This document shows, piece by piece, positions 21,638 to 59,604 of a stretch of DNA of 64,000 nt (positions are counted from its first letter, which is position 1; the number at the start of each line of letters is the position of its first letter). The stretch is from Phycisphaerae bacterium. Its GTDB lineage: Bacteria; Planctomycetota; Phycisphaerae; SM23-33. The stretch is from the NCBI GenBank assembly GCA_039683615.1, contig JBDKRA010000022.1, positions 197,146-261,145 of the forward strand, given 5' to 3'. Made by a program: the position numbers and the translations under genes. Under the pieces are notes generated by a model. The model made no database searches. It had not been told where the DNA came from and saw only the letters and a list, made by a program, of their open reading frames with translations.

Positions 21638-24600
21638 CTACTTCTGCTCGGCCTTGCCGAAGATCTTCTCGATCAGCACGTAAAACAGGGGCACGAACAC
21701 GACCACCAGCACGGTGGCTGACACCATGCCGCCCAACACGCCGGTGCCGATGGCCTTCTGGGCGCCCGCTCCGGCCCCGGTGGCAATCGCCAGGGGAACC
21801 ACGCCGAAGCCAAAGGCCAGCGAGGTCATCAAGATCGGCCGCAATCGCAACTTGGCCGCCTCCAGCGTCGCCTCCAGCAGCCCCACGCCTTCCTGGACCT
21901 TTCCCTTGGCGAACTGCACGATCAGAATGGCGTTCTTGGTCGTCAGCCCCAGCGTCGTCAGCAGGGCGATCTGGAAGTACACGTCGTTGGCCAGCCCGCG
22001 CTGTCCGGAGGCGATCACGCCGCCGATGACGCCCAGCGGCAGGGCCAGCAGAATCGCCACGGGGATCGTCCAGCTCTCGTACAGTGCGGCCAGGCACAGG
22101 AAGATGACGAGGATCGAGAAGGCGTACAGCAGCGGCGCCTGAGCGCCGCCCTGGCGCTCCTGGTACGACAGCCCCGTCCAGTCGTAGCCCACGCCCGTCG
22201 GCAGCTCGCCGACGAACTTTTCCATCGCGGCCATCGCTTCGCCGGAACTGCGTCCCGGCGCCGGTTCGCCCTGGATGTTGAACGACGGAAAGCCGTTGAA
22301 CCGCTCCAACTTGGGCGAGCCCGACGTCCAGTGCGACGAGGCGAACGAGGAGAAAGGAACCATCTGCCCGTTGCCGTTGCGGACATAGAGCTTGTCCAGG
22401 TCCTGCGGGAGCATGCGGTACGGGGCGTCGGCTTGGGCATAGACGCGTTTAACGCGCCCGCCCTGGACAAAGTCGTTGACGTACGCGCTGCCAAAGGAGG
22501 CGGAGATCGTGTTGTGGATCGACGAGATCGGCACCCCCATCGCCCCGGCCTTATCCCAGTCGACGTCCACGCGATACTCCGGGACATCCTCCAGACCGTT
22601 GGGGCGCACCCGCACCAGCCGCGGATCCTTGGCGGCCTTGCCCAGCAGTTGATTGCGAATGCCCATCATCGCGCTGTGCCCCAGTCCGCCGCGGTCGAGA
22701 AGCTGAAAGTCAAAGCCGGTGGCGTTACCCAGTTCCATCACCGACGGCGGAGGGAACACCAGGACCGTGCCTTCGCGAATCCGCGACAGCGCCATCATGG
22801 TGCGTCCGGCGACGGCCTTGGCCCGCAGCTCCTCACGGGAGCGCTGGTTCCAGTCCTTGAGTTTGACGAAGAGCATCCCGCTGCTCTGGGACCGACCCGA
22901 GAAGCTCATGCCGCAAATCGTCAGGCACGACTCGACGCTTTCCTTTTCCTTCTCACGGAGATACTGGGAGACCTGGTCGGCGAAACCCTGCGTCTGCTCG
23001 ATGGTCGAGCCGGTGGGCATGATGATCAGGGCCATCAGGATGCCCTGGTCCTCGTCGGGCAGGTACGAGCTGGGCATCTGTAGAAACAGCACGCCCAGCG
23101 CCGCGACGATCAGCACGTACATGGCCACAAAGCGGAACTTCCGCCGCAAGGCGTGGCTCACCAATCGCAGGTATACGTCTCGCAGACCGAAGAAGCCGCG
23201 GTCGAACCAGCGAAAGAACGGGCGCAGCAGCCAGAAGCCTCCCTCGGCCGGTTCATGCCCCTTGGCCACGGGCTTGAGGATCGCCGCGCACAGCACCGGC
23301 GTCAGCACCAGGGCGACGACGACCGAGAGAAGCATCGCGGCGGCAACCGTGACGGAGAATTGCCGGTAGATCACGCCGGTCGAGCCGGGGAAGAACGCCA
23401 TCGGAAAGAACACCGCCGAAAGGATCAGGCCGATGCCGATCAAGGCGCTGGTGATCTGGTCCATGGACTTGGCGGTGGCCTCGCGGGGCGAGAGCCCCTC
23501 CTCGCTCATGATACGTTCGACGTTCTCGACGACGACGATGGCGTCGTCGACCAGCAGGCCGATCGCCAGCACCATCGCGAACATGGTGAGCATGTTGATG
23601 GAGTAGCCCAGCATCGCCAGCACGCCGAAGGTCCCCAGCAGCACCACCGGAACGGCGATGGTCGGGATCAAGGTCGCGCGGACGTTGCCCATGAACAGGT
23701 ACATGACCAGGAACACCAGCACGATGGCTTCCAGCAGCGTCTTGACGACTTCCTCGATCGCCACCTTCGTGAACGGCGTGCTGTCATGCGGATAGAAGAC
23801 CTTCAGGCCATGGGGAAAATAACGGCTCATTTCCTCCATCTTGTCCCGCACGTTCTGGGCCGTCTCCAGCGCGTTGGCGCCCGAGGCCTGGCGAATCGCC
23901 AGCGCCGCCACAGGGAAGCCGTTGTAACGCGCCTGCATGTCGTAATTCTCGGTGCCCAGTTCCGTCCGGCCGACATCCTTGACGCGCACGACCGAGCCGT
24001 CGGGGTTGGTGCGGATGGGTATCGAGGCGAACTCCTCGGGCGTCTTGAGCAGGTTTTGCACCACGATCGACACGTTGAGGCGCTGCCCGTCAACGGCGGG
24101 CGTGCCGCCGAACTGACCGGCCGAAACCTCGACGTTGTACGCCCGCAGCGCGGCCGTCACGTCGGCGACCGTCAGGCGATAGCTCGTCAGTTTGTCGGGG
24201 TTCAGCCAGACGCGCATGGCGTATTGCGAACTGAAGCTTTCCACTTCACCCACGCCCGGAACCCGCGCCAGCACCTTCTCCAGGTTCGACATCGCGTAGT
24301 CCTGGATGTCAGCGATGGTCATGCTCCCGTCTTCGCAGGTCAGGCCCACGATGAGCAGATAGTTCCTCGTCGATTTGCCAACCTTGATGCCCACGCGCTG
24401 AACCGTCTCGGGCAGGCTCGTCATCGCCAGTTGCAGCTTGTTCTGAACCTGCGCCCAGGCCAGGTCCGGGTCCGTCCCCGGCGTGAAGGTCAGCTCGATG
24501 CGCGAGCTGCCGGCCGAGTCACTGGTGGCCGACATGTACAACATCTTGTCGAAGCCCGTCATCTTCTGCTCGATGATCTGCGTAACGCTGTTCTCGACCG

Positions 24601-24769
24601 TCTCGGCCGAGGCGCCGGGATACATCGCCGAAATGGCGATCGACGGCGGAGCGATGGGCGGATATTGCGAAATCGGCAGGCTATGAATGGCCAGGCCGCC
24701 CAGCACCATCGTCACGATGGCGATCACCCAGGCGAACACCGGGCGTTGCAGAAAGAATCTGGACAGCAT
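21638..24769 (-). CDS. RND multidrug efflux permease (AcrB/HAE1 family)
   Basis: 1043 aa with 12 TM helices and two large periplasmic loops. The N-terminus MLSRFFLQRPVFAWVIAIV is characteristic. Confidence 0.95.
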   Translation of the reverse strand: MLSRFFLQRPVFAWVIAIVTMVLGGLAIHSLPISQYPPIAPPSIAISAMYPGASAETVENSVTQIIEQKMTGFDKMLYMSATSDSAGSSRIELTFTPGTDPDLAWAQVQNKLQLAMTSLPETVQRVGIKVGKSTRNYLLIVGLTCEDGSMTIADIQDYAMSNLEKVLARVPGVGEVESFSSQYAMRVWLNPDKLTSYRLTVADVTAALRAYNVEVSAGQFGGTPAVDGQRLNVSIVVQNLLKTPEEFASIPIRTNPDGSVVRVKDVGRTELGTENYDMQARYNGFPVAALAIRQASGANALETAQNVRDKMEEMSRYFPHGLKVFYPHDSTPFTKVAIEEVVKTLLEAIVLVFLVMYLFMGNVRATLIPTIAVPVVLLGTFGVLAMLGYSINMLTMFAMVLAIGLLVDDAIVVVENVERIMSEEGLSPREATAKSMDQITSALIGIGLILSAVFFPMAFFPGSTGVIYRQFSVTVAAAMLLSVVVALVLTPVLCAAILKPVAKGHEPAEGGFWLLRPFFRWFDRGFFGLRDVYLRLVSHALRRKFRFVAMYVLIVAALGVLFLQMPSSYLPDEDQGILMALIIMPTGSTIEQTQGFADQVSQYLREKEKESVESCLTICGMSFSGRSQSSGMLFVKLKDWNQRSREELRAKAVAGRTMMALSRIREGTVLVFPPPSVMELGNATGFDFQLLDRGGLGHSAMMGIRNQLLGKAAKDPRLVRVRPNGLEDVPEYRVDVDWDKAGAMGVPISSIHNTISASFGSAYVNDFVQGGRVKRVYAQADAPYRMLPQDLDKLYVRNGNGQMVPFSSFASSHWTSGSPKLERFNGFPSFNIQGEPAPGRSSGEAMAAMEKFVGELPTGVGYDWTGLSYQERQGGAQAPLLYAFSILVIFLCLAALYESWTIPVAILLALPLGVIGGVIASGQRGLANDVYFQIALLTTLGLTTKNAILIVQFAKGKVQEGVGLLEATLEAAKLRLRPILMTSLAFGFGVVPLAIATGAGAGAQKAIGTGVLGGMVSATVLVVVFVPLFYVLIEKIFGKAEQK

Positions 24770-24781
24770 CTTGAGTCTCCG

Positions 24782-26080
24782 TCACTTTGAGCCAGGGGTG
24801 GCACGAGGAGCCTGGGCGAGTTTCATCGGGGTGTGCTTGACCAGAGAGCCCGGGCGCACCTTCTGGCCGCCTTCAACGATCAATTTCTCGCCTTCCACCA
24901 GTCCAGCGCTGACAAACCACTGGCTGCCGATGGCGCGATCGAGCGTCAGGACCCGTGCGGCGGCCTTGCCGTCGGCGTCGACGATCATCGCCATGGGCGT
25001 GCCGCGCGGATCGCGCGTCACGGCCTGCTGGGGAATCAGGATCGCCTTGCGGTTGACGCCCTCGACGATCGACGCTCGGACGAACATGCCCGGCAGCAGC
25101 GTCGCGTTGGGGTTGGGAAAGACCGCCCGCAAAATGACCGATCCGGTCGTCGGATCGACCGTCACGTCGCGGAACTGAAGAGTCCCTTCCAGCGGACAGG
25201 GACTGCCGTCTTCCATCGACAGCTTGACCTTCTCGCCGCCGGCGCCGTTGTGGTTGAGCGAACCGTCCTTCAGCCGCTGACGCAGCCGAAGCAACTCGGC
25301 CGTCGACTGGGGAACATCCACGTAGATCGGGTCCAGTTGCTGGATCGTCGCCAGCGCCAGCGGTTGATACGCCGTCACCAAGGCGCCGTCGTTGACGGTC
25401 GATTTGCCGATGCGCCCCGACAGCGGAGCGGTGATCTTCGTATACGCCAAGTTGATGTTGGCCGTGGCCAGGGCGGCCTGGGCCTGCTGCACCGACGCCT
25501 GGGCACCCGCGATAGTCTGGCGGCTGCTCTCGACCTGCGCGTCGGCCGCTTCGAGATTGGCTTTGGCGACATTGACCTTTGTCTTGGCGTCGTCCAGTTC
25601 CGACGCCGTCGCGGTCCTGGTGGCAAAGAGCTGCTCCGTGCGTTTGAGGTCGACCTGGGCCTGATCTAAGGTGGCTTTCTCCCGCGTCACACCCGCGACA
25701 CAGGCCGCCAAAGCAGCCTGAGCCTTGGCGACGCCCTTGACGGCCACCTCCAGATTGGCCGCGGCGTTTTCCTGCGCAGCTTTGAACGTGGCCGCGTCGA
25801 TCTCATAGAGCACGTCGCCAGCCTTGACGTCTGAGCCTTCAGTGAACAACCGCTTCTGCACGATGCCATTGACCTGGGGCCGGACTTCGGCCACGCGGAA
25901 GGATGCCGTGCGGCCGGGAAGGTCCGTCGTCAACACGACCTCCTGCGGCGTCACTGTCACAATGCCCACTTCCGGCACCGGCGGAGGCGGCGCGGCTTGC
26001 TGTTGCTTCTGGCAGCCCTGCAACATTGCCAGGCACACCAGTGCGGCAGCGAGATGGGAATTCGTTTTGACGATACTCAT
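24782..26080 (-). CDS. RND efflux periplasmic adaptor (AcrA/HlyD-type membrane fusion lipoprotein)
   Basis: A lipobox LAMLQGC, a coiled-coil hairpin, and beta-barrel and MP domains. Confidence 0.9.
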   Translation of the reverse strand: MSIVKTNSHLAAALVCLAMLQGCQKQQQAAPPPPVPEVGIVTVTPQEVVLTTDLPGRTASFRVAEVRPQVNGIVQKRLFTEGSDVKAGDVLYEIDAATFKAAQENAAANLEVAVKGVAKAQAALAACVAGVTREKATLDQAQVDLKRTEQLFATRTATASELDDAKTKVNVAKANLEAADAQVESSRQTIAGAQASVQQAQAALATANINLAYTKITAPLSGRIGKSTVNDGALVTAYQPLALATIQQLDPIYVDVPQSTAELLRLRQRLKDGSLNHNGAGGEKVKLSMEDGSPCPLEGTLQFRDVTVDPTTGSVILRAVFPNPNATLLPGMFVRASIVEGVNRKAILIPQQAVTRDPRGTPMAMIVDADGKAAARVLTLDRAIGSQWFVSAGLVEGEKLIVEGGQKVRPGSLVKHTPMKLAQAPRATPGSK

Positions 26081-26619
26081 GCGTTTACTCCAGTTCTGCG
26101 CTCAGGCGGAGCTTTCTGCTTCTTCTGCAATTCCCGGACGAGGGCGTCCAGGACCTTCTGGTATGAATTCAGCATCGCCGTCCGCTCCCTCTGGGAAAGG
26201 ACGTTCACGACGCTGCAGATCCTGCGATATCGCTCCGGCAGGTGGCGGCTGATGAAGCTGCGGCCCGAGGGCGTCAGCGAGACCGCGACCATCCGCCGGT
26301 CGCCGGGGTGCGGCGTGCGGACCGTGTGACCGAGCTTCTCCAGCGAGTCCAGGGCACTGGTCATAGCCGAGCGCGTCAGGGACACTTCCTCCGACAGCGC
26401 GGCCGGGGTCGACGTTCCGTCTTCGCTGTGGAAGAGCAACTCCATGATCTCGATCTGCCTGGCCGTCAACCCCCATCCTGCCAGATCGTTTTCGATCACC
26501 TGCTCTACCTGGTGATGAAGACGCGCAATTTCCAGCCCCTCCCGAAGGGTCGTTTGCTCGATCCCTTCCAGTCGGCCGGCAAACTGCATGATTCCGTCGA
26601 TCGTGTTCTTACTGGGCAT
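26077..26619 (-). CDS. MarR-family transcriptional regulator
   Basis: A winged-HTH region LTARQIEIMELL...LSEEVSLTRSAMTSALDSLEKLGHTVRTPHPGDRR. The start is placed at MPSKNT (26619), with the alternative MHGIV at 26664. It overlaps the adaptor gene by 4 nt. Confidence 0.85.
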   Translation of the reverse strand: MPSKNTIDGIMQFAGRLEGIEQTTLREGLEIARLHHQVEQVIENDLAGWGLTARQIEIMELLFHSEDGTSTPAALSEEVSLTRSAMTSALDSLEKLGHTVRTPHPGDRRMVAVSLTPSGRSFISRHLPERYRRICSVVNVLSQRERTAMLNSYQKVLDALVRELQKKQKAPPERRTGVNA

Positions 26620-26762
26620 GAGAGTCTCCGCCAGGCTGGTTCGACCAGATACAATACCATGCAATATAATATGGCGTCGAACTATATGGAAACATAATCT
26701 CCTGTTCCTTTGGTTCGTTGATGCATTGCCATGGGCAAGCTTGCGTTACTCCAGGGCGGCAC

Positions 26763-26875: not shown

Positions 26876-26936
26876 GTAGCACGGGCGTCCCGCCCGTATT
26901 TCCCGTGCCCCGCCGCGGGCGAGACGGCCGTGCTAT
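26876..26936. repeat. GTAGCACGGGCGTCCCGCCCGT palindromic element (family F)
   Basis: gtagcacgggcgtcccgcccgt...ggccgtgctatgg lies downstream of the esterase fragment. The same 12-mer ends recur at 28112, 28223, 49225 and 49305. Confidence 0.5.
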
Positions 26937-28114
26937 GGTTTCTGCACCTTGAGCTTTACGCGGTTGGCGGTGATCTCAACGATGGCCAGTTTGACGGCTT
27001 TGACTTCCGTGAGGCGATCGGCCAGGGTTTCGTTCGAGTAGCGATATTCCACGTCGATGTTGGCGACGCTTTCGGTGATCTCCCGCAGGCGAAGGGCCTG
27101 CACGCCGCGCAGCGTCGAGGCCTCGGTCTTGAACGTCTTCCAGGTCTCGAAGTCCATCCCTGAAACGCTGATCGCCACGGTGCGAGAGACGTTGGCCCGC
27201 TTGCGCCACGCTTCGACGACGGCCGCCAGAAGCTGCGCGGCGCAGTCGTCGCCGAGCTTGGCCAGGGCCTTATCCTCGCCGCCGCCGCGCTGCAGCGTGG
27301 TGGTCGTGACGGGGCCGAAGGTCCTGCTGGCCAGCACTCGCGCCGAGTCGGTCTGGATCACCCGCACGTTGAGCGTGGCGGTGTACTGGTAGAGTGTCTG
27401 GCCGGACACATCGAGGCGTTTGCCGTACTTGGCGGTCGCCCGGCCGGTGACGACCACGTCGGCGTTGAACCGCGCCCCCAGCGAGGCCACCTCGGTCATG
27501 TCGTCCTTGATGGCCGCCAGCAGCACGTCTCGCTTGGAGACGCTGGCGGCGGTGTTCTTGTCCATGATGGTGATGCCCTTGGACAGAAAGAAATCCTCGA
27601 TCTTGCTCTGAATAGTGCCGCTGTCATTTTCCCGGTAGGTGGGACCCTCCGTGGTCTGGTGAACCGACTCGGCGATGGCCACGATCACGCGAGGATTATT
27701 CTCCTGGTGAATCGTGTGGATGGTCGAGGCCCAATCCTCCTCGAACTTCTGCGTCGAGACGCGGGCCCGCACCCGGGCGGTCGTCACGCCGTCTTCGATG
27801 CTCACTTTGACGACCTTGTGCTCCTTGACGTAGCCCACGGCGTTGGCGATGACCTTGTCATAGACAGCCTTGTAGTCTTCGCTCTTGGACTGGCTGGTCA
27901 GGAAGACGCCGCAGGCTTCTTCGACGGCCGTGCGCAGGGCCTGCGCGACAGCCTCGTCGCGGGCCTTGTCGTCGGCCCCGCTGGCGCGGCCGGTGGCATC
28001 GACCCATTTGTCAACGGGACGGGCGGCGATCGGCTGCGCGACGGCCGCTGACGAAATCGCAACAAGAACAGCTCCAATCTGAATGAGCGTTGTCATGCTT
28101 CGAGAACGATTCAT
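26933..28114 (-). CDS. Secreted three-domain protein: LPP20/FlgP-like N-domain, CsgG-like middle domain, and a C-terminal beta domain (paralogue A)
   Basis: The start is placed at MNRSRSMTTLIQIGAVLVAISSAAVAQ (signal peptide, ATG 28114). LPP20-like spacing: ATGRASGADDKARDEAVAQALRTAVEEACG...VKVSIEDGVTTARV. CsgG-like: PRVIVAIAES...FNADVVVTGRA...LNVRVIQTDSARVL. Confidence 0.6.
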   Translation of the reverse strand: MNRSRSMTTLIQIGAVLVAISSAAVAQPIAARPVDKWVDATGRASGADDKARDEAVAQALRTAVEEACGVFLTSQSKSEDYKAVYDKVIANAVGYVKEHKVVKVSIEDGVTTARVRARVSTQKFEEDWASTIHTIHQENNPRVIVAIAESVHQTTEGPTYRENDSGTIQSKIEDFFLSKGITIMDKNTAASVSKRDVLLAAIKDDMTEVASLGARFNADVVVTGRATAKYGKRLDVSGQTLYQYTATLNVRVIQTDSARVLASRTFGPVTTTTLQRGGGEDKALAKLGDDCAAQLLAAVVEAWRKRANVSRTVAISVSGMDFETWKTFKTEASTLRGVQALRLREITESVANIDVEYRYSNETLADRLTEVKAVKLAIVEITANRVKLKVQKP

Positions 28115-28245
28115 CGGCTGTCTCCCAAGTAGCACGACCCTCTTGCCCGTGAGCACCACGGCCATCCCGAGCGTGGCCTTTGCCATGCACGGGCGAGACA
28201 CCCGTGCTACTCATGGCCGAGACGGCCATGCTACGGAAAAACTAC
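28112..28245. repeat. GTAGCACG...CCCGTGCTAC element containing the nested palindromes CACGGGCGAGACACCCGTG and CATGGCCGAGACGGCCATG (family F)
   Basis: It lies between the paralogue A start and the paralogue B stop, and overlaps the start region of paralogue A. Confidence 0.5.
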
Positions 28246-29375
28246 GGCGCTTTGAATTTCGCTTTGATCACGTTGGCCGAGACGTCGGAGATATCCAGTT
28301 CCGGCATGGCGTCGGCGAGTTTCTCAGCCAGCTTTTCGGCGATCAGGTCCGATTGGAGCGAGCACTCGACGACCTGATTGTGGAAGGCGGCCGTGACGTC
28401 CTTGACATTCTTGACGGTCTTGAGCTTGGCCTTGATCTGCGTGTACTGCTTGAAGGTGACGCCCTCGACGTGCAGCTGCACCTCGCCGCGTCCGGCCAGG
28501 GCGTCCTGCCAGAATTGGAGCACGTCTTCGACGACCTTGGGGGCGACGATCTGGGCCTGGGCGTCCAGGGCCTTGGCGGCGGCGCTGCGCCAAACGCGGT
28601 CGACCCCGCGCGTCGACGGACCGGGCTGGCTGGCCAAAAGCTGCCCGGTGTCGCTGCGAAAACAGCGGATGTTCGATTCAGCCTGGAACGGGAACAACTG
28701 CAGCCCGCCGACGACACTCGTGGGCCCGGGCGTGGCGTTGGCCGTGCCGCTGATGAAGATCTGTGCGCCAAATCGTTTCGCCACCGCTTGCAGGCGGGCG
28801 GGACTGTCCTCGGCGGCCGCGGCGGTCAGGTCCTTCTTGTCGATCTCCTTGAGCTGCTCCTTGTCCACCAGGACAAATCCGCTCTTGAGCAGCAGGTTCT
28901 CGATTCGCGTCTGGACGGTCGAGTCGTCCTGCACCCGCTCGCCGATGCGCTCGCGGACAAAGACCATGATCTTGGGCCGCCCCACTTGCGCCAGCAGGTT
29001 GGTCACCACGCCCCAGGTGTCCTCGATGCCTTTGATCGACACGACGGCCGATATCTTCACCTGCCACGAGCCGTCGGGCAGTTCGCCCTTGGAGAGGATC
29101 TTCTTGCTCTGCAGGAACCCGGCGCTGCGCGACAGCACGGTGTCGCGCACGAGGGCGAAGTCCTTCATCTCCGAGTGCGAGCTGATGTATTGCCCCGCGC
29201 CATGCTCGACGGCTTTGCGCATGGCGTCGGCCAGTGCTTCCTCTTCGCTGGCTCCACCGCCGGTGACGGTCACTTCCACCAGGTTGTCGCCCTTGGGCGT
29301 GACGGTCTGGGCCGGCGCCGAAGCGGTCCAGAGCAGGGCAATGCCGATCACCGCAAGAATCCGTGTGAGTCTCAT
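28242..29375 (-). CDS. Secreted three-domain LPP20-like/CsgG-like protein (paralogue B)
   Basis: Signal peptide MRLTRILAVIGIALLWTASAPAQT. LPP20-like: VTGGGASEEEALADAMRKAVEHGAGQYISS. CsgG-like: IMVFVRERIG...LLKSGFVLVDKEQL...FGAQIFISGTA. The domain order matches the 26933-28114 gene. Confidence 0.6.
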   Translation of the reverse strand: MRLTRILAVIGIALLWTASAPAQTVTPKGDNLVEVTVTGGGASEEEALADAMRKAVEHGAGQYISSHSEMKDFALVRDTVLSRSAGFLQSKKILSKGELPDGSWQVKISAVVSIKGIEDTWGVVTNLLAQVGRPKIMVFVRERIGERVQDDSTVQTRIENLLLKSGFVLVDKEQLKEIDKKDLTAAAAEDSPARLQAVAKRFGAQIFISGTANATPGPTSVVGGLQLFPFQAESNIRCFRSDTGQLLASQPGPSTRGVDRVWRSAAAKALDAQAQIVAPKVVEDVLQFWQDALAGRGEVQLHVEGVTFKQYTQIKAKLKTVKNVKDVTAAFHNQVVECSLQSDLIAEKLAEKLADAMPELDISDVSANVIKAKFKAP

Positions 29376-29418
29376 ATCCGTGCCTCAGAGTACGAATGTC
29401 TTACCAAGGGCGTATGTT

Positions 29419-29829
29419 CTATCGCAGTTCCATGGTCCGGCGGACGGGCTCGGATACGTCGACGTTCTTCTCGGATTCGGTATGCACGTCGTTTTTGCCG
29501 TAAGGTCCGGCCAGCTTGCCGTCCTTGGTAATGTGGAACCAGAGCTTGGACGGGGTATCGTCGGTGACCGGGAAGCTCAGGTCCGAACCGGTGCCGGCCG
29601 CAATGCGGCACTGGGCGGGCATGTCGGAGGTCTTGACCGCCAACGTCATGCTCTGCCGCCCTTCGGCGCCGACGGTGCCCATAGTCATTGTTTCATCGGG
29701 GGTGCTGAGCCTGACCGTACGGGCCAGGTCGCTGTGGTTCATCACGGTGACCAGGACTTTCTTCTCGCATCCGGCCGCAACAGCCGCGCACGCCACCAAC
29801 GCCACAAGCAGTAATCTCGTCGATTTCAT
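29419..29829 (-). CDS. Small lipoprotein of unknown function
   Basis: The start is at MKSTRLLLVALVACAAVAAGC, which carries a lipobox. The mature protein is about 115 aa with no recognisable motif. Confidence 0.5.
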   Translation of the reverse strand: MKSTRLLLVALVACAAVAAGCEKKVLVTVMNHSDLARTVRLSTPDETMTMGTVGAEGRQSMTLAVKTSDMPAQCRIAAGTGSDLSFPVTDDTPSKLWFHITKDGKLAGPYGKNDVHTESEKNVDVSEPVRRTMELR

Positions 29830-29863
29830 TTCAGGTCTCCTTCGCGCCACGATTGCCGGGCGA

Positions 29864-31216
29864 TTAATTCAGCTTGAGAGAAAGCTTTTCCTTGTAGTAC
29901 AGCACCATGTTCCACAGCGGGGCCATCTCGACCTCGACGATGACCGAGGCGGTCCCGTCGGGGGCGATTTTTTCCGAGCCATTGACTCGCCGCGAGCCCT
30001 GCATGAACGTCAGCATGCTCGTGCGGATCTGGTCGTCCATGGCCACAAAATCCTTCACCGACGTCTGGCTGGAGACCACCAGCCCGTCGAGCTGCTCGGC
30101 CAGCTTGCGCTTGGCGTCGAGCTCGGCGGCGCGCAGGGCCATCAGCTTGGCCTGCGCGGCGTTGCTGTTTTCGGTGTCGATGGCGGCCTGGCCGGTAGCC
30201 TGGACGGTCGGCGGCCAGTTGGACATGGCCTTGCCGACCGCGGCGACGGCGACGTCATCGCCCTTGAGATAGTCGTCCGGCGGCACGCCCATGCCGGTCT
30301 CGCGGATGTCCTTGTCCTCGATGCGGGCGCTGATTCGCTCGATGTCTTCGCTGGCGATGCGGTTGCCCTTGTAGTATTCCTTGTGCCACCGCTGGAGAGT
30401 GACGATCAGATCCCGCACCGTGACTTCCTTGTCGACTTCCACGATCAGTTCCCCGTCGTGATATCGCACGCCAACCTCGCGGGCGCCACGGATGAAGGTT
30501 TGCATCTGGGTGTTGATCGTGTCGTTGGTGGCCACAAAATCCTTCACCGTGGTTTCCGAATTGATCAGGATGCCGTTGATGCGCTCGCCGAGCCTGCGCA
30601 TGGAATCGACTTCCGCGGCGCGCTTGGCCATCAGGCGCCCGCGGGCGGTGCAGTGGGCCATCCAATACGCCCAGGCCTTCCTGGACATGATGCCTTCGCC
30701 GCCGGCGGTGGGAGCGACGGTCTCGCCCCGGTCGGCGAACTCCGGGCGCGGCACGCCCGAGCCGGTCTCGCGCAGGGTGCTTTCCTTGGTGTTGGCGGAG
30801 ATCTTTTCGATGTCCGCGTAGGCGATCTTATTGCCCTTGTAATACTCCTTGTGCAGGCGCTGGAGCTGGACGACGAGCTCCTTGACCGTCACTTCGAGGG
30901 TGACCTGGCAGGCGCCGTCGGGGGTAAACGTCGGTTCGCCCACTTCCTTCATGCCGCTCAGCCACGAGGTCATTGCGGACTGGATCCGGTCGCTGGTGGC
31001 CACGAAATCCTTGACCGTCGTCTCGGAGGTGATGACCAGGCCGTTGATGCGTTCAGCGAGTCTTCGCATGGCGTCGACGCGGGCGGCCCGCATCGCCAGC
31101 AACTTGTTCTGGGCGGCCTGCTTTTCCGACAGCGCGTCGGCCCTTGCTTCGGCGCCCAGCGCCGACAGCACGCCCACTACCAGCATCCAGGTCAGGATTT
31201 TCCATTTGTCGCTCAT
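29864..31216 (-). CDS. Secreted protein with three tandem LPP20-like (FlgP/Lpp20 family) domains
   Basis: The start is at MSDKWKILTWMLVVGVLSALGAEARA (ATG 31216). Three repeats of about 125 aa each carry AKLLAMRAARVDAMRRLAERINGLVITSETTVKDFV, AKRAAEVDSMRRLGERINGILINSETTVKDFV, and AKLMALRAAELDAKRKLAEQLDGLVVSSQTSVKDFV. Confidence 0.7.
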   Translation of the reverse strand: MSDKWKILTWMLVVGVLSALGAEARADALSEKQAAQNKLLAMRAARVDAMRRLAERINGLVITSETTVKDFVATSDRIQSAMTSWLSGMKEVGEPTFTPDGACQVTLEVTVKELVVQLQRLHKEYYKGNKIAYADIEKISANTKESTLRETGSGVPRPEFADRGETVAPTAGGEGIMSRKAWAYWMAHCTARGRLMAKRAAEVDSMRRLGERINGILINSETTVKDFVATNDTINTQMQTFIRGAREVGVRYHDGELIVEVDKEVTVRDLIVTLQRWHKEYYKGNRIASEDIERISARIEDKDIRETGMGVPPDDYLKGDDVAVAAVGKAMSNWPPTVQATGQAAIDTENSNAAQAKLMALRAAELDAKRKLAEQLDGLVVSSQTSVKDFVAMDDQIRTSMLTFMQGSRRVNGSEKIAPDGTASVIVEVEMAPLWNMVLYYKEKLSLKLN

Positions 31217-31329
31217 CGCTCTCTCCTCTAGGTCCGCCGCGCGTCCGGCAGGGGCGGCGGTTCCTGCTGTTGCGGGCCATTCCCGCACGTGTGTCGACTG
31301 TACGATTCGCCATCGCCCGCGGCGATGGG

Positions 31330-32352
31330 TTATTTCGGCCGCGTCTCCTCGATCCTGAACGCATGGGTCATGACCGGCTCGGGACCCGAATAGAACTTGG
31401 CGATATACTCGCCCGCCCCGCCGCCCTTGGCGGCGATCTCCCTGGGGCTGAACCCGTACCCGAACGACCCGAACTTGCTGGACCAGAGAAGGTCGTGCGT
31501 CGCCAGGTCCACGCGCTCGCCGCTGCGGACGATCGTGAGGCGAAAGCGGTTGTTGTTGCACACCCCCGGCAGCTTGACGACCACGAACATCTTGTCGTCC
31601 TGCGTGCTGAAGCGGTCGGCGTATTCCCACTTGTTGTCGTACAGCGCCGCGGCCGTGCGGCAGTCCTCATTGGGGTTGACCTTGATCTGGCATTGCGTGA
31701 CGGCGAATTCGGCCACCATCTGCCCCACCACGCCGTCGACGGCGTTGGCCAGGCAGCCGTGGGCGTCGCGCGGCGGCGGCGAGCCCTGCGCCCAGCTGGT
31801 GGCCTTGAGCTGCTGGGGCGTGGCATGAATCGGCCGACCGTCCGCCACGCGGATGAGCGTGGCGGTCACGGCAACATTGGCCTCGTTGCGCGTCAGGACG
31901 TACTTGCGATAGCCCGAGACGTAGCTGTTGCCGTTGCCGTCGTAGCTGTAGATCGGGTCGCTCTTGGGCTCGTTGCGCGTGGTAGCCGCATAGGTCACAA
32001 GATTGCCCACGAGGATCGCCTGCACCTTGCCAAGCTTGCTGAACTGCGACGCCGCCGCGGCCGCATCGCCGCCGAAGGCCAATTGCAGGTCCTTCTCATT
32101 CATCAGGGCCGCCAGGTCGTTGCGGTTGTAGACCGCGTAGGTTCCGTTGGCGGCCATGGCCCCGGCCAGGGCGTCGGAGATCGCCAGCGAGGCGGCAGAG
32201 TTATTGCCGCGGAAGGGGACGACGGCCACGCTCTTGAGCGACGGATCGTAGAACGCGGGGTATCGCGTGATGGTGATGGTCTTGGTGCATCCGCCGCAGA
32301 GAGCGGCCAGGACCGCGGCGGTCACACACAGAAGAAAGAAACTCTGGCGCAT
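31330..32352 (-). CDS. Lipoprotein with an N-terminal CsgG-like domain and an uncharacterised C-terminal domain of about 190 aa
   Basis: Lipobox LAALCGGC. CsgG-like: SVAVVPFRGNNSAASLAISDALAGAMAANGTYAVYNRNDLAALMNEKDL...GKVQAILVGNL. Confidence 0.55.
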   Translation of the reverse strand: MRQSFFLLCVTAAVLAALCGGCTKTITITRYPAFYDPSLKSVAVVPFRGNNSAASLAISDALAGAMAANGTYAVYNRNDLAALMNEKDLQLAFGGDAAAAASQFSKLGKVQAILVGNLVTYAATTRNEPKSDPIYSYDGNGNSYVSGYRKYVLTRNEANVAVTATLIRVADGRPIHATPQQLKATSWAQGSPPPRDAHGCLANAVDGVVGQMVAEFAVTQCQIKVNPNEDCRTAAALYDNKWEYADRFSTQDDKMFVVVKLPGVCNNNRFRLTIVRSGERVDLATHDLLWSSKFGSFGYGFSPREIAAKGGGAGEYIAKFYSGPEPVMTHAFRIEETRPK

Positions 32353-32459
32353 CGATGCAACTCCTGGATCATATGCCTCGCGGAACGAATTGCGGGCTGA
32401 TAAGGAGGCGCCGCGGCGAAGAAGATCGCCGCAGCGGCCTCGGATATAACCGGACCGAA

Positions 32460-33089
32460 CTAATTCTTCGCCTCAGGCGCCTTCGGGGCCGACTGTCGCT
32501 GCGAGAAATACTCGCGCCACGGGCCCAGAGCCTCGCGGGCGGCCTTCTGAGCGGCGCGGGCAAAACCGGCGCCGTCGCTGCCGTTGCCCGTGCGGGTGTA
32601 GATAATCTGCCCGTCGCTGACGCGCACGGCCCGCACGCCCAGGCCGACCTTGTAGCTCGTGATAGTCGTGCCGCCGCCGAAGTACGGAACCGAAATGTTG
32701 GTCGGGTTGGCTGATTTCTCGTACTGGCTCACCTCGCCGACAATCACGATGTCGACCCCGGCGATCTTGCCGACCTCGGCGGCGCGGCCGCTGTTGCTGT
32801 ACAGGTCCTTGAGATCCTTCTCCTGCACGAGCTTGTCCAGTTGTGCCCGCTCCACGAGCTTGATGCCCGGCGAGAGCACCATCTCAGTGACCGGACCGAC
32901 CACCGTGCCTCCCGAGCCCGGCTGGCCGGAGGCGTCAGATAACGGAACCACCGCCACGCTCGAAACCTTCGACAAGGCCGCCTGCTCGTCGGCCGTCACC
33001 GCCAGTTCCTTCGCCTTCTCCTCGCATCCGATGGCCAAGAACAGGTTTGTCGTCACAATAACCGCCGTCAGGCTGATTCTCTTGAGCAT
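32460..33089 (-). CDS. CsgG-family lipoprotein (curli-channel-like fold)
   Basis: Lipobox LFLAIGC. SVAVVPLSDASGQ...GPVTEMVLSPGIKLVERAQLDKLVQEKDL...VGKIAGVDIVIVGEV matches the CsgG/LpoB/TolB-N-like pattern. The length is 209 aa. Confidence 0.6.
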   Translation of the reverse strand: MLKRISLTAVIVTTNLFLAIGCEEKAKELAVTADEQAALSKVSSVAVVPLSDASGQPGSGGTVVGPVTEMVLSPGIKLVERAQLDKLVQEKDLKDLYSNSGRAAEVGKIAGVDIVIVGEVSQYEKSANPTNISVPYFGGGTTITSYKVGLGVRAVRVSDGQIIYTRTGNGSDGAGFARAAQKAAREALGPWREYFSQRQSAPKAPEAKN

Positions 33090-33397
33090 GACGAGTTCCT
33101 TTCGTTAGGCAGCCCAATCGCGGGCTGATAGACAGACCAAGCCTCGCCCAATGCAATTGAGTTCAAGTTCAATGTGACCGCACGACCCTGGAAATGTACT
33201 TCCGGCTGACAACATGAAGCTCTTCCTTAAGCAACGTTGCACAGCAACATATGCACCTTATGCCCACACCATATTGCGATCCGAGGGAAAGTCAAGATGT
33301 CAATTGCAAAAAACTGCTGCCGGTCGAGCAAACTCGACCGCTGACAAAACAAGATTCGTTGTCACCTTCATTTGAACCATGCCCAAACAACGAATCA

Positions 33398-35131
33398 TTA
33401 TGGCTTCTCTTGGACCAGCGCGGCCTGCATGTGCCGGTATTCCTCGAGCAGGAAATCGCCTCGGCGATGGCCGGTGATGTGCGACCAAGGCAAGACGGCG
33501 TCGGTCGGAATTTCGCGATGCGCGATCGCGGCGATGTCGATGCCGGTCTCGGCGAAGGCCTCCTGCCACTTGGCCCAGTCCCAATGCTCCGACCAGGAAT
33601 CCATCCGTGCTCCGCGGCGCCAGGCGGCCTCGATCGCGGCGCCAACCTCGCGCCCGCCGCGGCAGATCACTGCTTCCAGGATGCTCTGCTCGATGCGGTG
33701 GAACTTGAACGTCACGGGGCTGCGTCGCGACAGGTCCAGCAGGCGCTGTCGCACGGCGAAGAAGTACTCGGCCGTCTGCATCGCGCACCATTGCATGGGG
33801 GTGTGAGGCTTGGGCACAAACCAGGAGACGCCGGCGTTGACGGTGCCGCTCTTGCCGTCGACCTCGCGCCGCGTGTGGCAGAGCTTCAGGCACAGGTCGA
33901 AGATCGCGTCAATGTCGGCGGGCGTCTCGCCGGGCAGGCCGGCCATGAAGTACACCTTCACGCTGCGCCATCCGGCGGCGTAGGCGGCCTGGACGCCGGC
34001 GAGCATGTTCTCGTCGGTGATATCCTTGCGGATGGCGCGGCGGAGGCGCTGGCTGGCGGCCTCGGCGGCGATGGTCAGGCCGCCCTTGCGGACAGAACTG
34101 GTCAGCTTGGGAAGCTGCGCCAGTTGGCTGTCGGCTCGAAGGCTCGGCAGCGAGATCGACACGTGCTGGGGCGCGAACTCGGCATTGAGACGCTCGATCA
34201 GCTCGTCGAGCTTGGGATAGTCGCTGGTCGAGAGGCTCAGCAGCGAGATTTCGCGGTAGCCCGTGGCGGCCAGGGCCTCGCGGGCGGCATCGACAATTTC
34301 ATCCACGCTGCGGCAGCGCACGGGCAGGCGGGTGGCGCCGGCCTGGCAGAAGCGGCAGCCGTTCGGGCAGCCTCGCATGATCTCTATGACGACGCGTTCG
34401 TGCACGCCCTCGGCCAGGGGCACCAGCGGGCACTTGATAGTCGGGCAAGCGTGCAGGTCTGCCAGATGGGACCGCACCACCGGCCCGGCGGCGCCTTTGT
34501 AGAAGCGCGGGGCATAGGCGGCCTTGATGGCGTGCTGGGCGGCGGCAATGATCTCGTCTCGCGAGGCGCCGGCCGGCTTGAGCTTGGCGACAAGTTCGGC
34601 CAGCTCTCGCAGGGGCTCTTCTCCGTCGCCGACGAGGAAGAGGTCGAAGAAATCCGCCACAGGCTCGGGGCTGTCGGCCAGGGCGTCGCCGCCGACGACG
34701 ATCGGGTCGCCCGGACGGCGCTCGCTTGCATGCAGCGGGATCCCCGCCAGGTCGAGCATCGTCAGGACGTTGGTGACGCAGAGCTCGTACGCCAGGGAGA
34801 AGCCCAGGATGTCGAAGTCGGCCAGTGCGCAGCGGCTTTCCCAGCCAAACAGCGGGACGCCCTGCTCGCGCATGACGGTTTCGGCGTCGACCTGCGGGCA
34901 GTACGCTCGGTCGCACGCGACGGCGGGCATGTCGTTGAGCATCTGGTAGAGCACCTGGCTGCCCAGGTGCGAGATGCCCACGCCGTAGGCGTCGGGGAAG
35001 GCCATCGCGACGCTGACGGCCGCGGCGGCGGGGTCTTTGCGGCGGGCGTTGATCTCCAGGCCGATGTACTGGGCCGGGGCGCTGACCCGCGGCAGCAGGC
35101 GGGTGCGGATGTCGTGTTCGAGATTCCTCAT
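33398..35131 (-). CDS. B12-binding-domain radical SAM protein (TIGR03960-like family)
   Basis: The CxxxCxxC motif is CPNGCRFCQAG, and the N-terminal B12-binding-like region is GFSLAYELCVTNVLTMLD. The length is 577 aa. Confidence 0.7.
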   Translation of the reverse strand: MRNLEHDIRTRLLPRVSAPAQYIGLEINARRKDPAAAAVSVAMAFPDAYGVGISHLGSQVLYQMLNDMPAVACDRAYCPQVDAETVMREQGVPLFGWESRCALADFDILGFSLAYELCVTNVLTMLDLAGIPLHASERRPGDPIVVGGDALADSPEPVADFFDLFLVGDGEEPLRELAELVAKLKPAGASRDEIIAAAQHAIKAAYAPRFYKGAAGPVVRSHLADLHACPTIKCPLVPLAEGVHERVVIEIMRGCPNGCRFCQAGATRLPVRCRSVDEIVDAAREALAATGYREISLLSLSTSDYPKLDELIERLNAEFAPQHVSISLPSLRADSQLAQLPKLTSSVRKGGLTIAAEAASQRLRRAIRKDITDENMLAGVQAAYAAGWRSVKVYFMAGLPGETPADIDAIFDLCLKLCHTRREVDGKSGTVNAGVSWFVPKPHTPMQWCAMQTAEYFFAVRQRLLDLSRRSPVTFKFHRIEQSILEAVICRGGREVGAAIEAAWRRGARMDSWSEHWDWAKWQEAFAETGIDIAAIAHREIPTDAVLPWSHITGHRRGDFLLEEYRHMQAALVQEKP

Positions 35132-35959: not shown

Positions 35960-36499
35960 ATGCCGATCAAATTCCGTTGCGAGCACTGCGGCAAATCGAT
36001 CCAGGCCCCCGACACCGCCGGCGGCAAGCGTGGCAAATGCCCCTATTGCAAGCAGGGAAACTACATCCCCGCGCCGGTCACCGAGGCCGACCTGCTCGAC
36101 GTCAGCGAAGACGCCGATCTCGAACAGGCCCGCCAGCGAGAGCGCCAGGCTCTGATCGACCAGGAACGCCAACTGCTGGCCGAGGTCGGCTCGGCCGCCT
36201 CCGTCCCCTTCGAGCAGCGCGACGACCTGACGCCCGAGGACCTGTACCCCTTCGTGGTCAGCTACTGCCTGGGCATCTTCAACGGCTCGCTCGATCAGTC
36301 GCAGGAACAGATCGACAAGCTCAAGAAGCACCAGAGCATGGGCCAGTCGGCGGTCGATGACTTCCTGGCCGACAAGACCTCCGACGAGTCCCTCACGTGC
36401 ATTCCCGGACCTGTCCTCAAAGGCCTGCTGCGCGACCTCAAGGGCAAACTCGCCGTCGGCGGACCTGCCGGCAAGGGCAAAGCAAAAGGCAAAGCCTGA
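35960..36499 (+). CDS. Zinc-ribbon-domain protein, function unknown
   Basis: CEHCGK...CPYCK is followed by an acidic or coiled region and a Lys/Gly-rich tail. Confidence 0.55.
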   Translation: MPIKFRCEHCGKSIQAPDTAGGKRGKCPYCKQGNYIPAPVTEADLLDVSEDADLEQARQRERQALIDQERQLLAEVGSAASVPFEQRDDLTPEDLYPFVVSYCLGIFNGSLDQSQEQIDKLKKHQSMGQSAVDDFLADKTSDESLTCIPGPVLKGLLRDLKGKLAVGGPAGKGKAKGKA

Positions 36500-49578: not shown

Positions 49579-50157
49579 ATGTCCGTCGCCCCATGTGTAC
49601 ACGCTATGGATGCTCGCCCGCAAGTGGAGCAGTACCTCCCGCTGGCCCGCACGATCGCCTCACGCCTGAAACGCTGTTACTGCTGGGTGGATTCCGAAGA
49701 GCTCTACAGTTACGTCCTCCTGGGCCTCTCGCAGGCCGCCACGCAGTATGAAAACGATCAAGGCGTCACCTTCGCCGATTTCGCCGCCCGCAAGGCCATG
49801 TACCTGGCCATCGACCAGATGCGCAAGGACCGCGTGCTGTCCAAGGCCGGCGCCGCTCCGCGCCGCGTGGTCTTCAGCAGCGACCTGGCCGACGACGACA
49901 CCTCGCCGATGTCCATGACGGCTGTCGACCGCCGCTACGAAGAGCACTCGCGGCAGTCGGACCTGCGCGACTTTTTCTCGACCGTTCGCTCGCGGCTGTG
50001 CCCGTGGGAAAGCCTCTTGTTGAAGCTGCACTACGACAAGGGTCTGACGTTTCGTGAAATCGCCTGCCGCCTGGGCGTGGGGCAGCCGACCCTGAGCATG
50101 CGTCACAAACGCCTATTGTCCAAGCTCCGCCGCCTGGCGCAGCCTTGCTGGTGCTGA
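49579..50157 (+). CDS. Short sigma-70-family protein with regions 2 and 4 only (FliA/SigD-like paralogue)
   Basis: Region 2-like YVLLGLSQAATQYENDQGVTFADFAARKAMYLAIDQ. Region 4 HTH KGLTFREIACRLGVGQPTLSMRHKRLLSKLRR. GGAG lies 8 nt upstream of the ATG. Confidence 0.6.
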   Translation: MSVAPCVHAMDARPQVEQYLPLARTIASRLKRCYCWVDSEELYSYVLLGLSQAATQYENDQGVTFADFAARKAMYLAIDQMRKDRVLSKAGAAPRRVVFSSDLADDDTSPMSMTAVDRRYEEHSRQSDLRDFFSTVRSRLCPWESLLLKLHYDKGLTFREIACRLGVGQPTLSMRHKRLLSKLRRLAQPCWC

Positions 50158-59386: not shown

Positions 59387-59484
59387 CGGGTCAGTTGTGA
59401 GGGCAGCGCCTGATCCGTCAAGCAGAGCGCACTGCTGCATGATGCCGCCTGCCTGGGCGTTTGTGAAGCTTCGCTCTTTGCCAA

Positions 59485-59572
59485 CGGAGAGGGCGGGATT
59501 CGAACCCGCGGTACCCTTTTGGGGCACACAGCATTTCCAGTGCTGCACATTCGGCCGCTCTGTCACCTCTCC
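59485..59572 (-). tRNA. tRNA-Ser (anticodon GGA), type II with a long variable arm; CCA is not encoded
   Basis: The reverse complement folds into a cloverleaf: acceptor GGAGAGG/CCTCTCC, D-stem ACA/TGT, anticodon stem CAGCA/TGCTG with loop CTGGAAA, a 20-nt variable arm, and T-arm GCGGG-TTCGAAT-CCCGC. Confidence 0.9.
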
Positions 59573-59604
59573 AGGAAACGCTTATCTTACTATATTGTAA
59601 AAAA

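Follow-up and report, generated by a model that had tools for sequence, protein, structure and literature searches.

A conserved six-gene cluster of Phycisphaerae encoding FlgT-like, FlgP-like and CsgG-type exported proteins, with a proposed role in an outer-membrane-associated ring scaffold

Background

The H-ring of the Vibrio flagellar motor is a concentric, outer-membrane-anchored assembly of FlgT and two lipoprotein rings, FlgP and FlgO (bioRxiv 10.64898/2025.12.02.691832). V. cholerae FlgT is a 377-aa protein in which the N domain extends to residue 109, the M domain covers residues 121-287 and the C domain residues 292-377 (bioRxiv 10.64898/2025.12.02.691832). In the basal disk of Campylobacter and Helicobacter (FlgP, FlgQ; PDB 9hmf), FlgP is arranged as trimers within the innermost ring, while FlgQ looks like two FlgP units in tandem. 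An insert at the position after the SHS2 helix of FlgP builds the ring, and within the family this insert correlates with ring formation (PMC12222027). Outer-membrane-associated disks are found on many polar motors. They have evolved repeatedly, with several origins likely; their composition is known for a few Proteobacteria only and that of some is still unreported (PMC5758724). Periplasmic disks are described as a general feature of polar motors (bioRxiv 10.1101/2023.09.08.556628). A polar flagellum is present in cultured and freshwater Phycisphaerae (PMC10945688; PMC6461901).

Other described systems share smaller parts with the locus presented here. The CsgG curli channel (PF03783; PDB 4uv3) is built from lipoproteins with a TolB-N-like alpha/beta fold, PelC is a lipoprotein that forms a ring beneath the outer membrane, and LipL46 of Leptospira is a lipoprotein studied as an outer-membrane adhesin. 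In this study, we describe a previously unstudied set of six genes that is conserved across a bacterial class.

Source sequence and gene set

The sequence is from Phycisphaerae bacterium (GTDB SM23-33), assembly GCA_039683615.1, contig JBDKRA010000022.1, positions 197,146-261,145 of the forward strand. The whole stretch of 64,000 nt is referred to as the window, and all positions are counted from its first letter (position 1). Six co-directional ORFs occupy 26933-33089 on the minus strand at the coordinates given in a preliminary description of this DNA, and their third-position GC of 0.79-0.89 is coding-like. These genes and the region upstream of them are as follows:

g1, 26933..28114, minus strand: secreted protein of 393 aa with the three-domain layout of g2; paralogue of g2
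g2, 28242..29375, minus strand: secreted FlgT-like protein of 377 aa; N domain 25-113, M domain 135-293, C domain 297-374
g3, 29419..29829, minus strand: lipoprotein of 136 aa with lipobox VAAGC; no assigned fold
g4, 29864..31216, minus strand: secreted non-lipoprotein of 450 aa; three tandem LPP20/FlgP-like domains
g5, 31330..32352, minus strand: lipoprotein of 340 aa (Cys22, ..LCGGC); CsgG-like N-domain and conserved C-domain of ~140 aa
g6, 32460..33089, minus strand: lipoprotein of 209 aa with lipobox LAIGC; CsgG-like domain
Intergenic region upstream of g6, 33090..33397, minus strand: low GC; sigma-70-like promoter candidate

The start codon of g1 is uncertain, its ORF being open to 28201, and the ATG at 29829 is the more likely start of g3. 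Export signals are present in all six genes, as the preliminary description had stated. Three products are lipoproteins (g3, g5 and g6). The other three, g1, g2 and g4, carry cleavable signal peptides, with hydrophobic N-termini and Ala-x-Ala-type cleavage sites and without a lipobox. The genes are separated by gaps of 13-127 nt, and a terminator scan located no terminator-like site in any of these gaps; the two minus-strand sites that it found lie inside g5 and g2. We tentatively regard the six genes as one operon and infer that they are co-transcribed. The database copies nearest to the six genes carry the label "hypothetical".

FlgT-like proteins g1 and g2

Tandem paralogy of g1 and g2 was borne out by BLASTP (26% identity across the full length, E=4e-41). 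The three-domain architecture proposed for the pair agrees with the AF2 model of g2, in which the N and M domains are of SHS2/LPP20 and TolB-N/CsgG type, respectively, and are followed by a small C domain of alpha/beta structure. The top Foldseek matches of this model were FlgT structures (8z5n_0, E=3.8e-10 over 359 columns; 3w1e, E=2.7e-9) that cover all three domains, with low TM-scores (0.28-0.40), since the domains of model and match are oriented differently to one another. Equal in length to V. cholerae FlgT and matching it in domain boundaries as modeled, g2 is predicted to have the N-M-C architecture of FlgT within a secreted protein of ~350-380 aa.

Sequence similarity to FlgT is marginal. 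In Pfam searches, g1 scored 23.3 bits with FlgT_N, below the cut-off of 28.8, and a sub-threshold 16 bits with CsgG; g2 had no FlgT_N match, leaving both proteins outside this Pfam family, and neither had a FlgT_M or FlgT_C match at E<=1. The FlgT_N threshold is passed by two more distant members of the family, P0390 (45.4 bits) and P0264 (41.8 bits). This FlgT-like family is a very large one that comprises 526 clusters at E<=1e-30, and its genes also adjoin a MacB-type ABC transporter in Halanaerobiales and elsewhere stand alone. Orthologues of g1 follow g2 in ~20 loci.

The M-domain fold is common to many non-flagellar envelope lipoproteins, and PelC (in an entry titled PelC dodecamer), LpoB, LptE, GNA1162 and HpaA were among the structural matches, as were H. 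pylori Lpp20 and HP1454 of the LPP20 family. CsgG pre-pore chains matched the g2 middle domain strongly. Unlike g2, PelC, LpoB, LptE, GNA1162 and HpaA are single-domain proteins, and their partners in polysaccharide export, peptidoglycan synthase function and LPS insertion are not encoded here. Residues 44-329 of g2 align with LipL46 (NCBIfam NF033164, E=7e-11) at 41.5 bits, which is far under the family cut-off of 400 and places g2 outside the equivalog. This alignment suggests, at the level of sequence, that g2 and LipL46 are members of one broadly defined multi-domain family, although LipL46 is a lipoprotein and g2 has no lipobox.

The triple-repeat protein g4

An internal triplication of an LPP20-like domain had been reported for g4, and self-alignment supports it, the three repeats being 41-51% identical in pairwise comparison. 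Pfam LPP20 (PF02169) matched two stretches of the protein at 42.3 bits, above the gathering cut-off of 25.9. The g4 family profile matched the PDB FlgP chains 9hmf, 9yds and 8z5n, with C. jejuni FlgP as the best sequence match (E=1.2e-6), and Foldseek assigned the AF2 model (pLDDT 73) to C. jejuni FlgP with a probability of 1.00 and to Lpp20 with a probability of 0.99. A database search returned 690 homologues at E<=0.001. The signal peptide of g4 ends in ..ALGAEARA and contains no Cys, in contrast to the lipidation typical of LPP20 and FlgP, and a lipobox-like motif occurs in only 1 of 25 members of the g4 family.

In the AF2 model, each repeat of g4 has an insert of ~31 residues between the long helix and the next core strand, and the alignment of g4 with FlgP is gap-free through the segment after the long helix. 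An insert after the SHS2 helix is common to FlgP and g4, but that of g4 is modeled in the monomer by AlphaFold as a short strand with helices and not as a long hairpin. The basal disk also contains repeats, FlgQ corresponding to two FlgP units and g4 to three FlgP-like units, although FlgP is a small lipoprotein and g4 is a soluble secreted protein of 450 aa.

Conservation, neighborhood and promoters

At least 80 genomes of Phycisphaerae/Planctomycetota, as well as one distant relative, share the core order of CsgG-like lipoprotein, triple-LPP20 protein and FlgT-like protein, which is kept down to 37-40% sequence identity in otherwise unrelated neighborhoods. The remaining content is variable, with g3, g1 and g5 each limited to subclades. 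Both the window and its closest relative contain g6, and in neither was the TPR lipoprotein of other relatives found. In every case the operon is surrounded by unrelated housekeeping genes, and recurring neighbors across 80 related loci are rplM, rpsI, argC and argJ. The statement of the preliminary description that the cluster has neither flagellar nor curli genes in its flanks holds: flagellar genes are absent from the 64-kb window and none recurs within 10 kb across the 80 related loci, and no CsgA-, CsgB-, CsgE- or CsgF-like gene was found among the annotated genes of the window or among recurrent neighbors. MotX and MotY were not found nearby in the window or related loci, and no PflA, PflB or FlgQ partner was seen.

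The region upstream of g6 is low in GC, as previously noted (0.48-0.52 at 33000-33450, compared with ~0.65 in the flanks). A promoter scan identified a sigma-70-like candidate, TTGACT-16-TATGGT, at 33295-33268, and TTGAC-containing 8-mers were the commonest words shared upstream of the operon in 62 loci. Neither a sigma-28 nor a sigma-54 promoter was detected ahead of these genes, either in the window or among the 62 relatives, best-match scores being at background; a sigma-28 promoter had been suggested for 33090-33300. Two FliA-type sigma factors had been named as the only regulators nearby. One of these genes, at 50168-50980, scores 208 bits with the FliA/WhiG model, above the threshold of 189.6, and the genome does encode a bona fide FliA/WhiG sigma factor; the other, at 49579-50157, encodes a short sigma-70/ECF-type protein that does not pass this model. 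A MarR-family regulator gene is also near, at 26077-26664, ~270 nt past g1.

A possible ring or disk scaffold

We propose, with a probability of about 45%, that the operon encodes an outer-membrane-tethered periplasmic ring or disk scaffold, most likely around the polar flagellar motor of these Phycisphaerae. The parts list reads as one of H-ring or basal-disk type rather than of a curli-like pore, and the flagellar association is a proposal. The ring or disk explanation is supported because its parts match FlgT (g2) and FlgP/Lpp20 (g4), and because the core gene order is conserved so widely. A flagellar role is plausible because the genome has a FliA/WhiG sigma factor, the class is typically polar-flagellated, and periplasmic disks are general on polar motors and have arisen repeatedly. 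In the proposed assembly, CsgG/TolB-N-like domains would oligomerize next to one another, and g4 would act as a covalently fused trimer of FlgP-like domains, polymerizing by way of the insert behind the long helix to give a single ring or several concentric ones. FlgT-like g2 and g1 would form an inner ring joining the disk to whatever it encircles. That structure would most likely be a polar flagellar motor, with the assembly as a Phycisphaerae version of the outer-membrane-associated motor disk.

The Vibrio H-ring (PDB 8z5n, 9yef, 9yds, 3w1e) is similar in having a three-domain secreted protein of ~377 aa, with FlgT as the best match of g2, and an LPP20/SHS2-family ring subunit, FlgP, which is matched by the g4 profile. 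It is also similar in bringing together FlgT-like, FlgP-like and lipoprotein components, the genes for which are in one putative operon in the window. For this reason, the earlier view that the locus is unrelated to canonical flagella is doubtful as worded. The idea of an oligomeric outer-membrane-associated assembly is strengthened, the closest solved relatives (FlgT, FlgP, CsgG and PelC) being ring-formers. The two systems differ in that the FlgT-like gene is duplicated here, the FlgP-like protein is a fused, unlipidated triple repeat, the lipoproteins are of CsgG type with no FlgO detected, other flagellar genes are not near, and the host belongs to the Planctomycetota and not to the Gammaproteobacteria. 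An explanation of H-ring type is weakened because FlgT_N is sub-threshold, FlgT_M, FlgT_C and FlgO are unmatched and g4 is not a lipoprotein, and because a weak relative, LipL46, is described as an adhesin. The LPP20 and CsgG assignments of the preliminary description did pass their Pfam thresholds (in g4, and in g5 and g6, respectively).

The operon supplies an entire class of the Planctomycetota with candidates for disk proteins and represents an unusual solution, in which CsgG-type anchors are combined with a pair of FlgT-like paralogues and with a FlgP-like trimer fused into one chain.

The flagellar reading is weakened because no flagellar genes flank the operon, because it has neither a sigma-28 nor a sigma-54 promoter ahead of it, and because the very large FlgT-like family also occurs in non-flagellar settings. 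The breadth of this family, together with the housekeeping neighbors and a promoter signal that is sigma-70-like alone, would suit a flagellum-independent ring or lattice of the same tethered kind, which would serve Phycisphaerae as a general envelope scaffold by stabilizing the outer membrane or linking it to the cell wall. Flagellar motors would then have recruited FlgT-, FlgP- and CsgG-type modules separately. The presence of Lpp20 and HP1454 among the structural matches, the treatment of LipL46 as an adhesin and not a motor part, and the sharing of the middle-domain fold with PelC, LpoB, LptE, GNA1162 and HpaA point in this direction. We nevertheless consider this scaffold less likely than the motor disk. 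A full-length FlgT-like protein combined with a FlgP-like protein that bears the insert at the position used for ring formation is so far known from flagellar motors only, and the organism has FliA and belongs to a class that is typically polar-flagellated. To our knowledge, FlgT and FlgP themselves are known solely from flagellar motors. In Campylobacter, flgP and flgQ are likewise located apart from other flagellar genes, which also counts against a flagellum-independent role.

Were such a ring or lattice to exist under the Phycisphaerae outer membrane, which is less likely, the H-ring and the basal disk would have branched off from an envelope scaffold that is older and more general. Planctomycetes would then hold a previously unseen outer-membrane-associated superstructure, with a bearing on the recruitment of flagellar accessories and on the debate over how the planctomycete envelope is built. 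With or without a flagellar motor, a testable function is offered for six genes labeled hypothetical and for a family that numbers several thousand proteins.

CsgG-type lipoproteins and the question of a channel

The CsgG-like N-domains attributed to g5 and g6 were recovered by Pfam at 32.6 and 52.7 bits against a cut-off of 20.8, and both proteins are lipoproteins; neither matched FlgO (PF17680) at E<=1. Orthologues of g5 are 46-84% identical with an invariant Gly-Cys in the lipobox, and g5 is divergently oriented in eight relatives. A PDB sequence search gave no match to g5, and no relatives of its ~140-aa C-terminal domain were detected. An orthologue of g6 was seen solely in the closest relative (L084/L085). 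In the upstream lipoprotein family of relatives, the lipobox Cys is invariant and the Pfam CsgG threshold is passed.

These scores, and the strong match of CsgG pre-pore chains to g2, could indicate a curli-like (type VIII) secretion channel, with the CsgG-like lipoproteins as an outer-membrane pore through which g4, or some other substrate, would reach the cell surface. Residues 82-174 of g6 align with CsgG chains (phmmer), and both g6 and the upstream lipoprotein family carry an insert at the position of hairpin TM1, with TM1 and TM2 placed as in the 2014 structure of E. coli CsgG. Each CsgG subunit contributes two membrane hairpins to the barrel. In g6 nothing corresponds to TM2, and the protein ends ~45 residues after the TM1-like segment; the g5-CsgG alignment ends before TM1 with negligible probability. 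Charged residues are abundant in the insert that the upstream lipoprotein family has in place of TM1, and the N-domain profile of this family matched no PDB chain, neither CsgG nor FlgO, in a library that includes the FlgO-containing 9yds. Curli subunit and accessory genes are lacking, the partners here being LPP20 and FlgT-like proteins. We therefore regard a channel as improbable, so that from the earlier suggestion of a ring- or channel-like assembly the ring is retained.

The remaining lipoprotein, g3, had no match in Pfam or NCBIfam; its lipobox is present in 12 of 12 orthologues, and it sits between g4 and g2 in 14 loci, all confined to one operon subclade. Such variable content, including the presence of g6 where no TPR lipoprotein was found, and the widespread, functionally diverse folds would suit independently acting periplasmic proteins and lipoproteins co-located by chance, such as LpoB-like regulators of cell-wall enzymes or LipL46-like adhesins, but we consider this hardly likely given the short, terminator-free gaps and a core gene order that persists across divergence, as functional modules usually do.

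Organization and domain content of the cluster

The cluster consists of six minus-strand genes, listed here in the direction of transcription.

32460-33089, minus: g6, 209 aa, CsgG-like lipoprotein
31330-32352, minus: g5, 340 aa, CsgG-like lipoprotein
29864-31216, minus: g4, 450 aa, triple-LPP20 protein
29419-29829, minus: g3, 136 aa, lipoprotein
28242-29375, minus: g2, 377 aa, FlgT-like protein
26933-28114, minus: g1, 393 aa, FlgT-like paralogue of g2

All six ORFs of the preliminary description are real, with the third-position GC bias typical of coding sequence (genome 65% GC). They are separated by gaps of 13-127 nt in which a terminator scan found no terminator-like site; the two minus-strand sites that it returned lie inside g5 and g2. 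As had been proposed, every product carries a signal peptide or lipobox: lipoboxes were identified in g3, g5 and g6, and in g1, g2 and g4 a hydrophobic N-terminus is combined with a signal-peptidase-I-type site and the lipobox cysteine is lacking. The lipobox cysteine is invariant among g5 orthologues and in the upstream lipoprotein family, the CsgG-like lipoproteins that precede g4 in most related loci.

The proposed domains were confirmed above the curated Pfam cut-offs for CsgG in g6 (52.7 bits) and g5 (32.6 bits) and for LPP20 in g4 (42.3 bits), where three repeats with 41-51% mutual identity uphold the suggested triplication. The g1 and g2 proteins are indeed tandem paralogues over their full length (26% identity, E=4e-41). 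Against Pfam, g1 reached 23.3 bits for FlgT_N (cut-off 28.8) and was also sub-threshold for CsgG; g2 had no Pfam match and a weak match to LipL46 in NCBIfam. All window proteins fell below the FlgT_N threshold, and none matched FlgT_M, FlgT_C or FlgO in Pfam. Iterated profiles built from related loci matched the N-terminal domain (g4 profile) and the middle domain (g6 profile) of both g1 and g2, in agreement with the LPP20-like and CsgG-like assignments made previously, although these cross-matches come from a small local set in which profile drift is possible.

In sequence searches of the PDB, neither the g2-family and g5-family profiles nor a profile of the N-terminal domain of the upstream lipoproteins had a significant match, and the full-length profile of these lipoproteins matched TPR proteins only. 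The C-terminal domain of g5 (residues ~200-340, ~140 aa) is highly conserved in 10 orthologues, in which numerous Trp, Phe, Tyr, Gly and Pro positions never vary, and it matched nothing in Pfam, NCBIfam or the PDB sequences.

Predicted structures resemble FlgT and FlgP

An AlphaFold model of g2, generated from 40 sequences, has three domains (mean pLDDT 81.5). In a Foldseek search with this model, FlgT occupied the first two ranks, with alignments collinear over nearly the entire chain (8z5n_0, E=3.8e-10 over 359 columns; 3w1e, E=2.7e-9). V. cholerae FlgT has 377 residues, as does g2, and its domain boundaries (N to ~109, M 121-287, C 292-377; bioRxiv 10.64898/2025.12.02.691832) are near-identical to those of g2.

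The g4 model (pLDDT 73) matched the folds of Lpp20 and C. jejuni FlgP, and a search with the g4 family profile, using sequence only, recovered FlgP chains from three in-situ structures of motors (best E 1.2e-6). The FlgP ring owes its continuous sheet to an insert after the long helix, and across the FlgP/LPP20 family the ability to form rings correlates with the presence of such an insert (PMC12222027). In each g4 repeat, ~31 residues separate the long helix from the next core strand, a segment that is not folded as a long hairpin in the monomer model. FlgP is a lipoprotein, whereas g4 has no lipobox cysteine.

Distribution and synteny

The window belongs to a Planctomycetota MAG, and the database entries identical (100%) to g4 and g2 are annotated as hypothetical proteins of "Planctomycetaceae bacterium". 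When a genome collection was scanned with the g4 alignment, relatives were located at 148 places, and 80 loci were kept, all from Phycisphaerae or Planctomycetota MAGs. Related loci include L060 on the 3.6-Mb chromosome CP070685.1 and L048 on the 2.4-Mb contig CAXXMC010000004.1. In the synteny check, a CsgG-like lipoprotein gene preceded g4 in ~64 loci and a FlgT-like gene followed it in ~56. The closest relative (81% identity) shares with the window the six-gene co-directional layout including g6; a subclade alone has g3, a g1-type second FlgT-like gene and g5 in divergent orientation, and a lower-identity clade (L063-L083) retains the lipoprotein-g4 pair alone. The flanks are not conserved, with rplM, rpsI, argC and argJ the commonest neighbours. 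No flagellar gene recurs in the flanks of related loci, and the earlier observation that flagellar and curli genes do not flank the cluster holds for the window and, as regards recurrent neighbours, for its relatives.

One MAG (JBHGBE01) has two triple-LPP20 gene copies (loci L022 and L039), one with a lipoprotein and a FlgT-like gene and the other alone. At L061 (7500-14200) the whole operon is split into many short overlapping ORFs, which look like frameshift errors of a long-read MAG rather than pseudogenes; this locus was excluded from family alignments.

Upstream region and neighbouring genes

The low-GC region noted 5' of the cluster was recovered as a dip to ~0.5 across 33000-33450, upstream of g6, and a promoter scan placed a sigma-70-like -35/-10 pair at 33295-33268. 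Across related loci, the commonest shared words upstream of the operon contain TTGAC. The sigma-28 promoter envisaged at 33090-33300 was not found: the pattern TAAA-N15-GCCGATAA (up to 3 mismatches) had 26 matches in the window and none in 33090-33400, and upstream of the operon in 62 loci the best scores equalled background except for one 11/12 match (L053). No sigma-54 score exceeded background upstream of the operon. Since basal-body genes do not as a rule depend on sigma-28, the missing sigma-28 promoter is weak evidence against a flagellar role.

Other genes of the window are as follows.

21638-24769, minus: RND-pump-like gene, 1043 aa
24782-26080, minus: gene resembling a membrane-fusion protein
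26077-26664, minus: MarR-family regulator, checked against Pfam
49579-50157, plus: sigma factor, 192 aa, passing the general sigma-70/ECF model only and lacking region 3
50168-50980, plus: sigma factor, 270 aa, passing the FliA/WhiG model (208 bits vs 189.6)

Of the tandem sigma factor genes, both previously called FliA-type, only the 270-aa product keeps that designation; the 192-aa product, with partial FliA similarity (60.9 bits), may be a truncated paralogue. The MarR, fusion-protein and RND block (21638-26664) lies directly downstream of g1 and looks like an insertion, since it is missing among the called genes of the closest relative (L084), where a peptidase gene directly follows g1. 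Near the cluster, 35960-36499 encodes 179 aa with CxxC pairs close to the N-terminus and 36597-38552 encodes 651 aa that begin with a signal-peptide-like stretch; neither product has a Pfam match. A 1299-aa ORF (55667-59566) shares its 5' part with a tRNA-Ser(GGA) gene (59484-59573, minus), and its start is thus probably over-called.

Interpretation of the cluster

With FlgT as the nearest fold of g2 and FlgP/Lpp20 as that of g4, the products likely form an oligomeric outer-membrane-associated assembly, as the preliminary description had supposed. We found no paper describing the operon, or tying LPP20 or CsgG proteins to planctomycetes. On the best reading, the products would form an H-ring/basal-disk-type scaffold.

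Our leading, tentative reading, at a probability of roughly 0.45, is that this scaffold is associated with a flagellar motor. To our knowledge, no role outside flagellar motors has been described for FlgT or FlgP. The Vibrio H-ring consists of FlgT with the lipoproteins FlgP and FlgO (bioRxiv 10.64898/2025.12.02.691832), the examined Phycisphaerae have a polar flagellum (PMC10945688; PMC6461901), and outer-membrane motor disks evolved repeatedly (PMC5758724) and are common on polar motors (bioRxiv 10.1101/2023.09.08.556628). In the cultured relative Poriferisphaera heterotrophicis ZRK32, rich medium and nitrogen source affect the flagellar genes (PMC10945688). The window also encodes the FliA/WhiG-type sigma factor. 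The former claim that the assembly is unrelated to flagella is not justified. Against motor association, however, stand the lack of a flagellar neighbourhood in any locus, the promoter results, the Pfam results for the FlgT and FlgO models, the predicted absence of lipidation in g4 and the occurrence of relatives in non-flagellar contexts. A scaffold of the same kind that is independent of the flagellum is the next candidate, at a lower but still appreciable probability.

A curli-like channel, the other option raised earlier, is improbable. The g6 protein aligns with E. coli CsgG through the first membrane hairpin region but ends ~45 residues past it, with no candidate for the second hairpin of the curli channel. 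For g5, profile comparison with E. coli CsgG was uninformative (probability 1.4%), and the alignment stops earlier than that of g6. Most relatives have in first position another lipoprotein, with a CsgG-like domain and two TPRs, whose insert equivalent to the hairpin contains many charged residues. Neither the window nor the related loci yielded curli subunit or accessory genes, and these features combined make a curli-type pore unlikely. That the proteins form no joint complex at all is similarly improbable beside the synteny of g4 with its lipoprotein and FlgT-like neighbours.

Pel-type polysaccharide export (prompted by a PelC fold match), LpoB-type regulation of a peptidoglycan synthase and a Caulobacter holdfast anchor (Caulobacter HfaB is CsgG-like) were considered and dropped for want of partner genes.

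The wider FlgT-like family

An exhaustive profile search returned 8199 FlgT-like representatives at E<=0.001 and 526 at E<=1e-30, and cluster look-ups of distant members gave mostly unnamed metagenome proteins. In one distant case the FlgT-like gene is again preceded by CsgG-TPR and triple-LPP20 genes; another member has a CsgG-like gene after it, a third stands alone, and a Halanaerobiales member adjoins a MacB-type ABC transporter. In the latter case (a MAG of a diderm Firmicute), the gene for a 377-aa protein passing FlgT_N comes immediately after a MacB/FtsX-type ABC transporter pair and a gene for 199 aa, on two independent contigs (L086 and L087). Repeated or fused FlgT-like copies occur in the family members P0254 (841 aa) and P0335 (826 aa, 7 matched stretches), and members such as P0370 (949 aa) and P0377 (914 aa), as at locus L088 (10001-12745), join a FlgT-like region to a transglutaminase-core domain and TPRs; such fusions may give a clue to the binding partners of the family.
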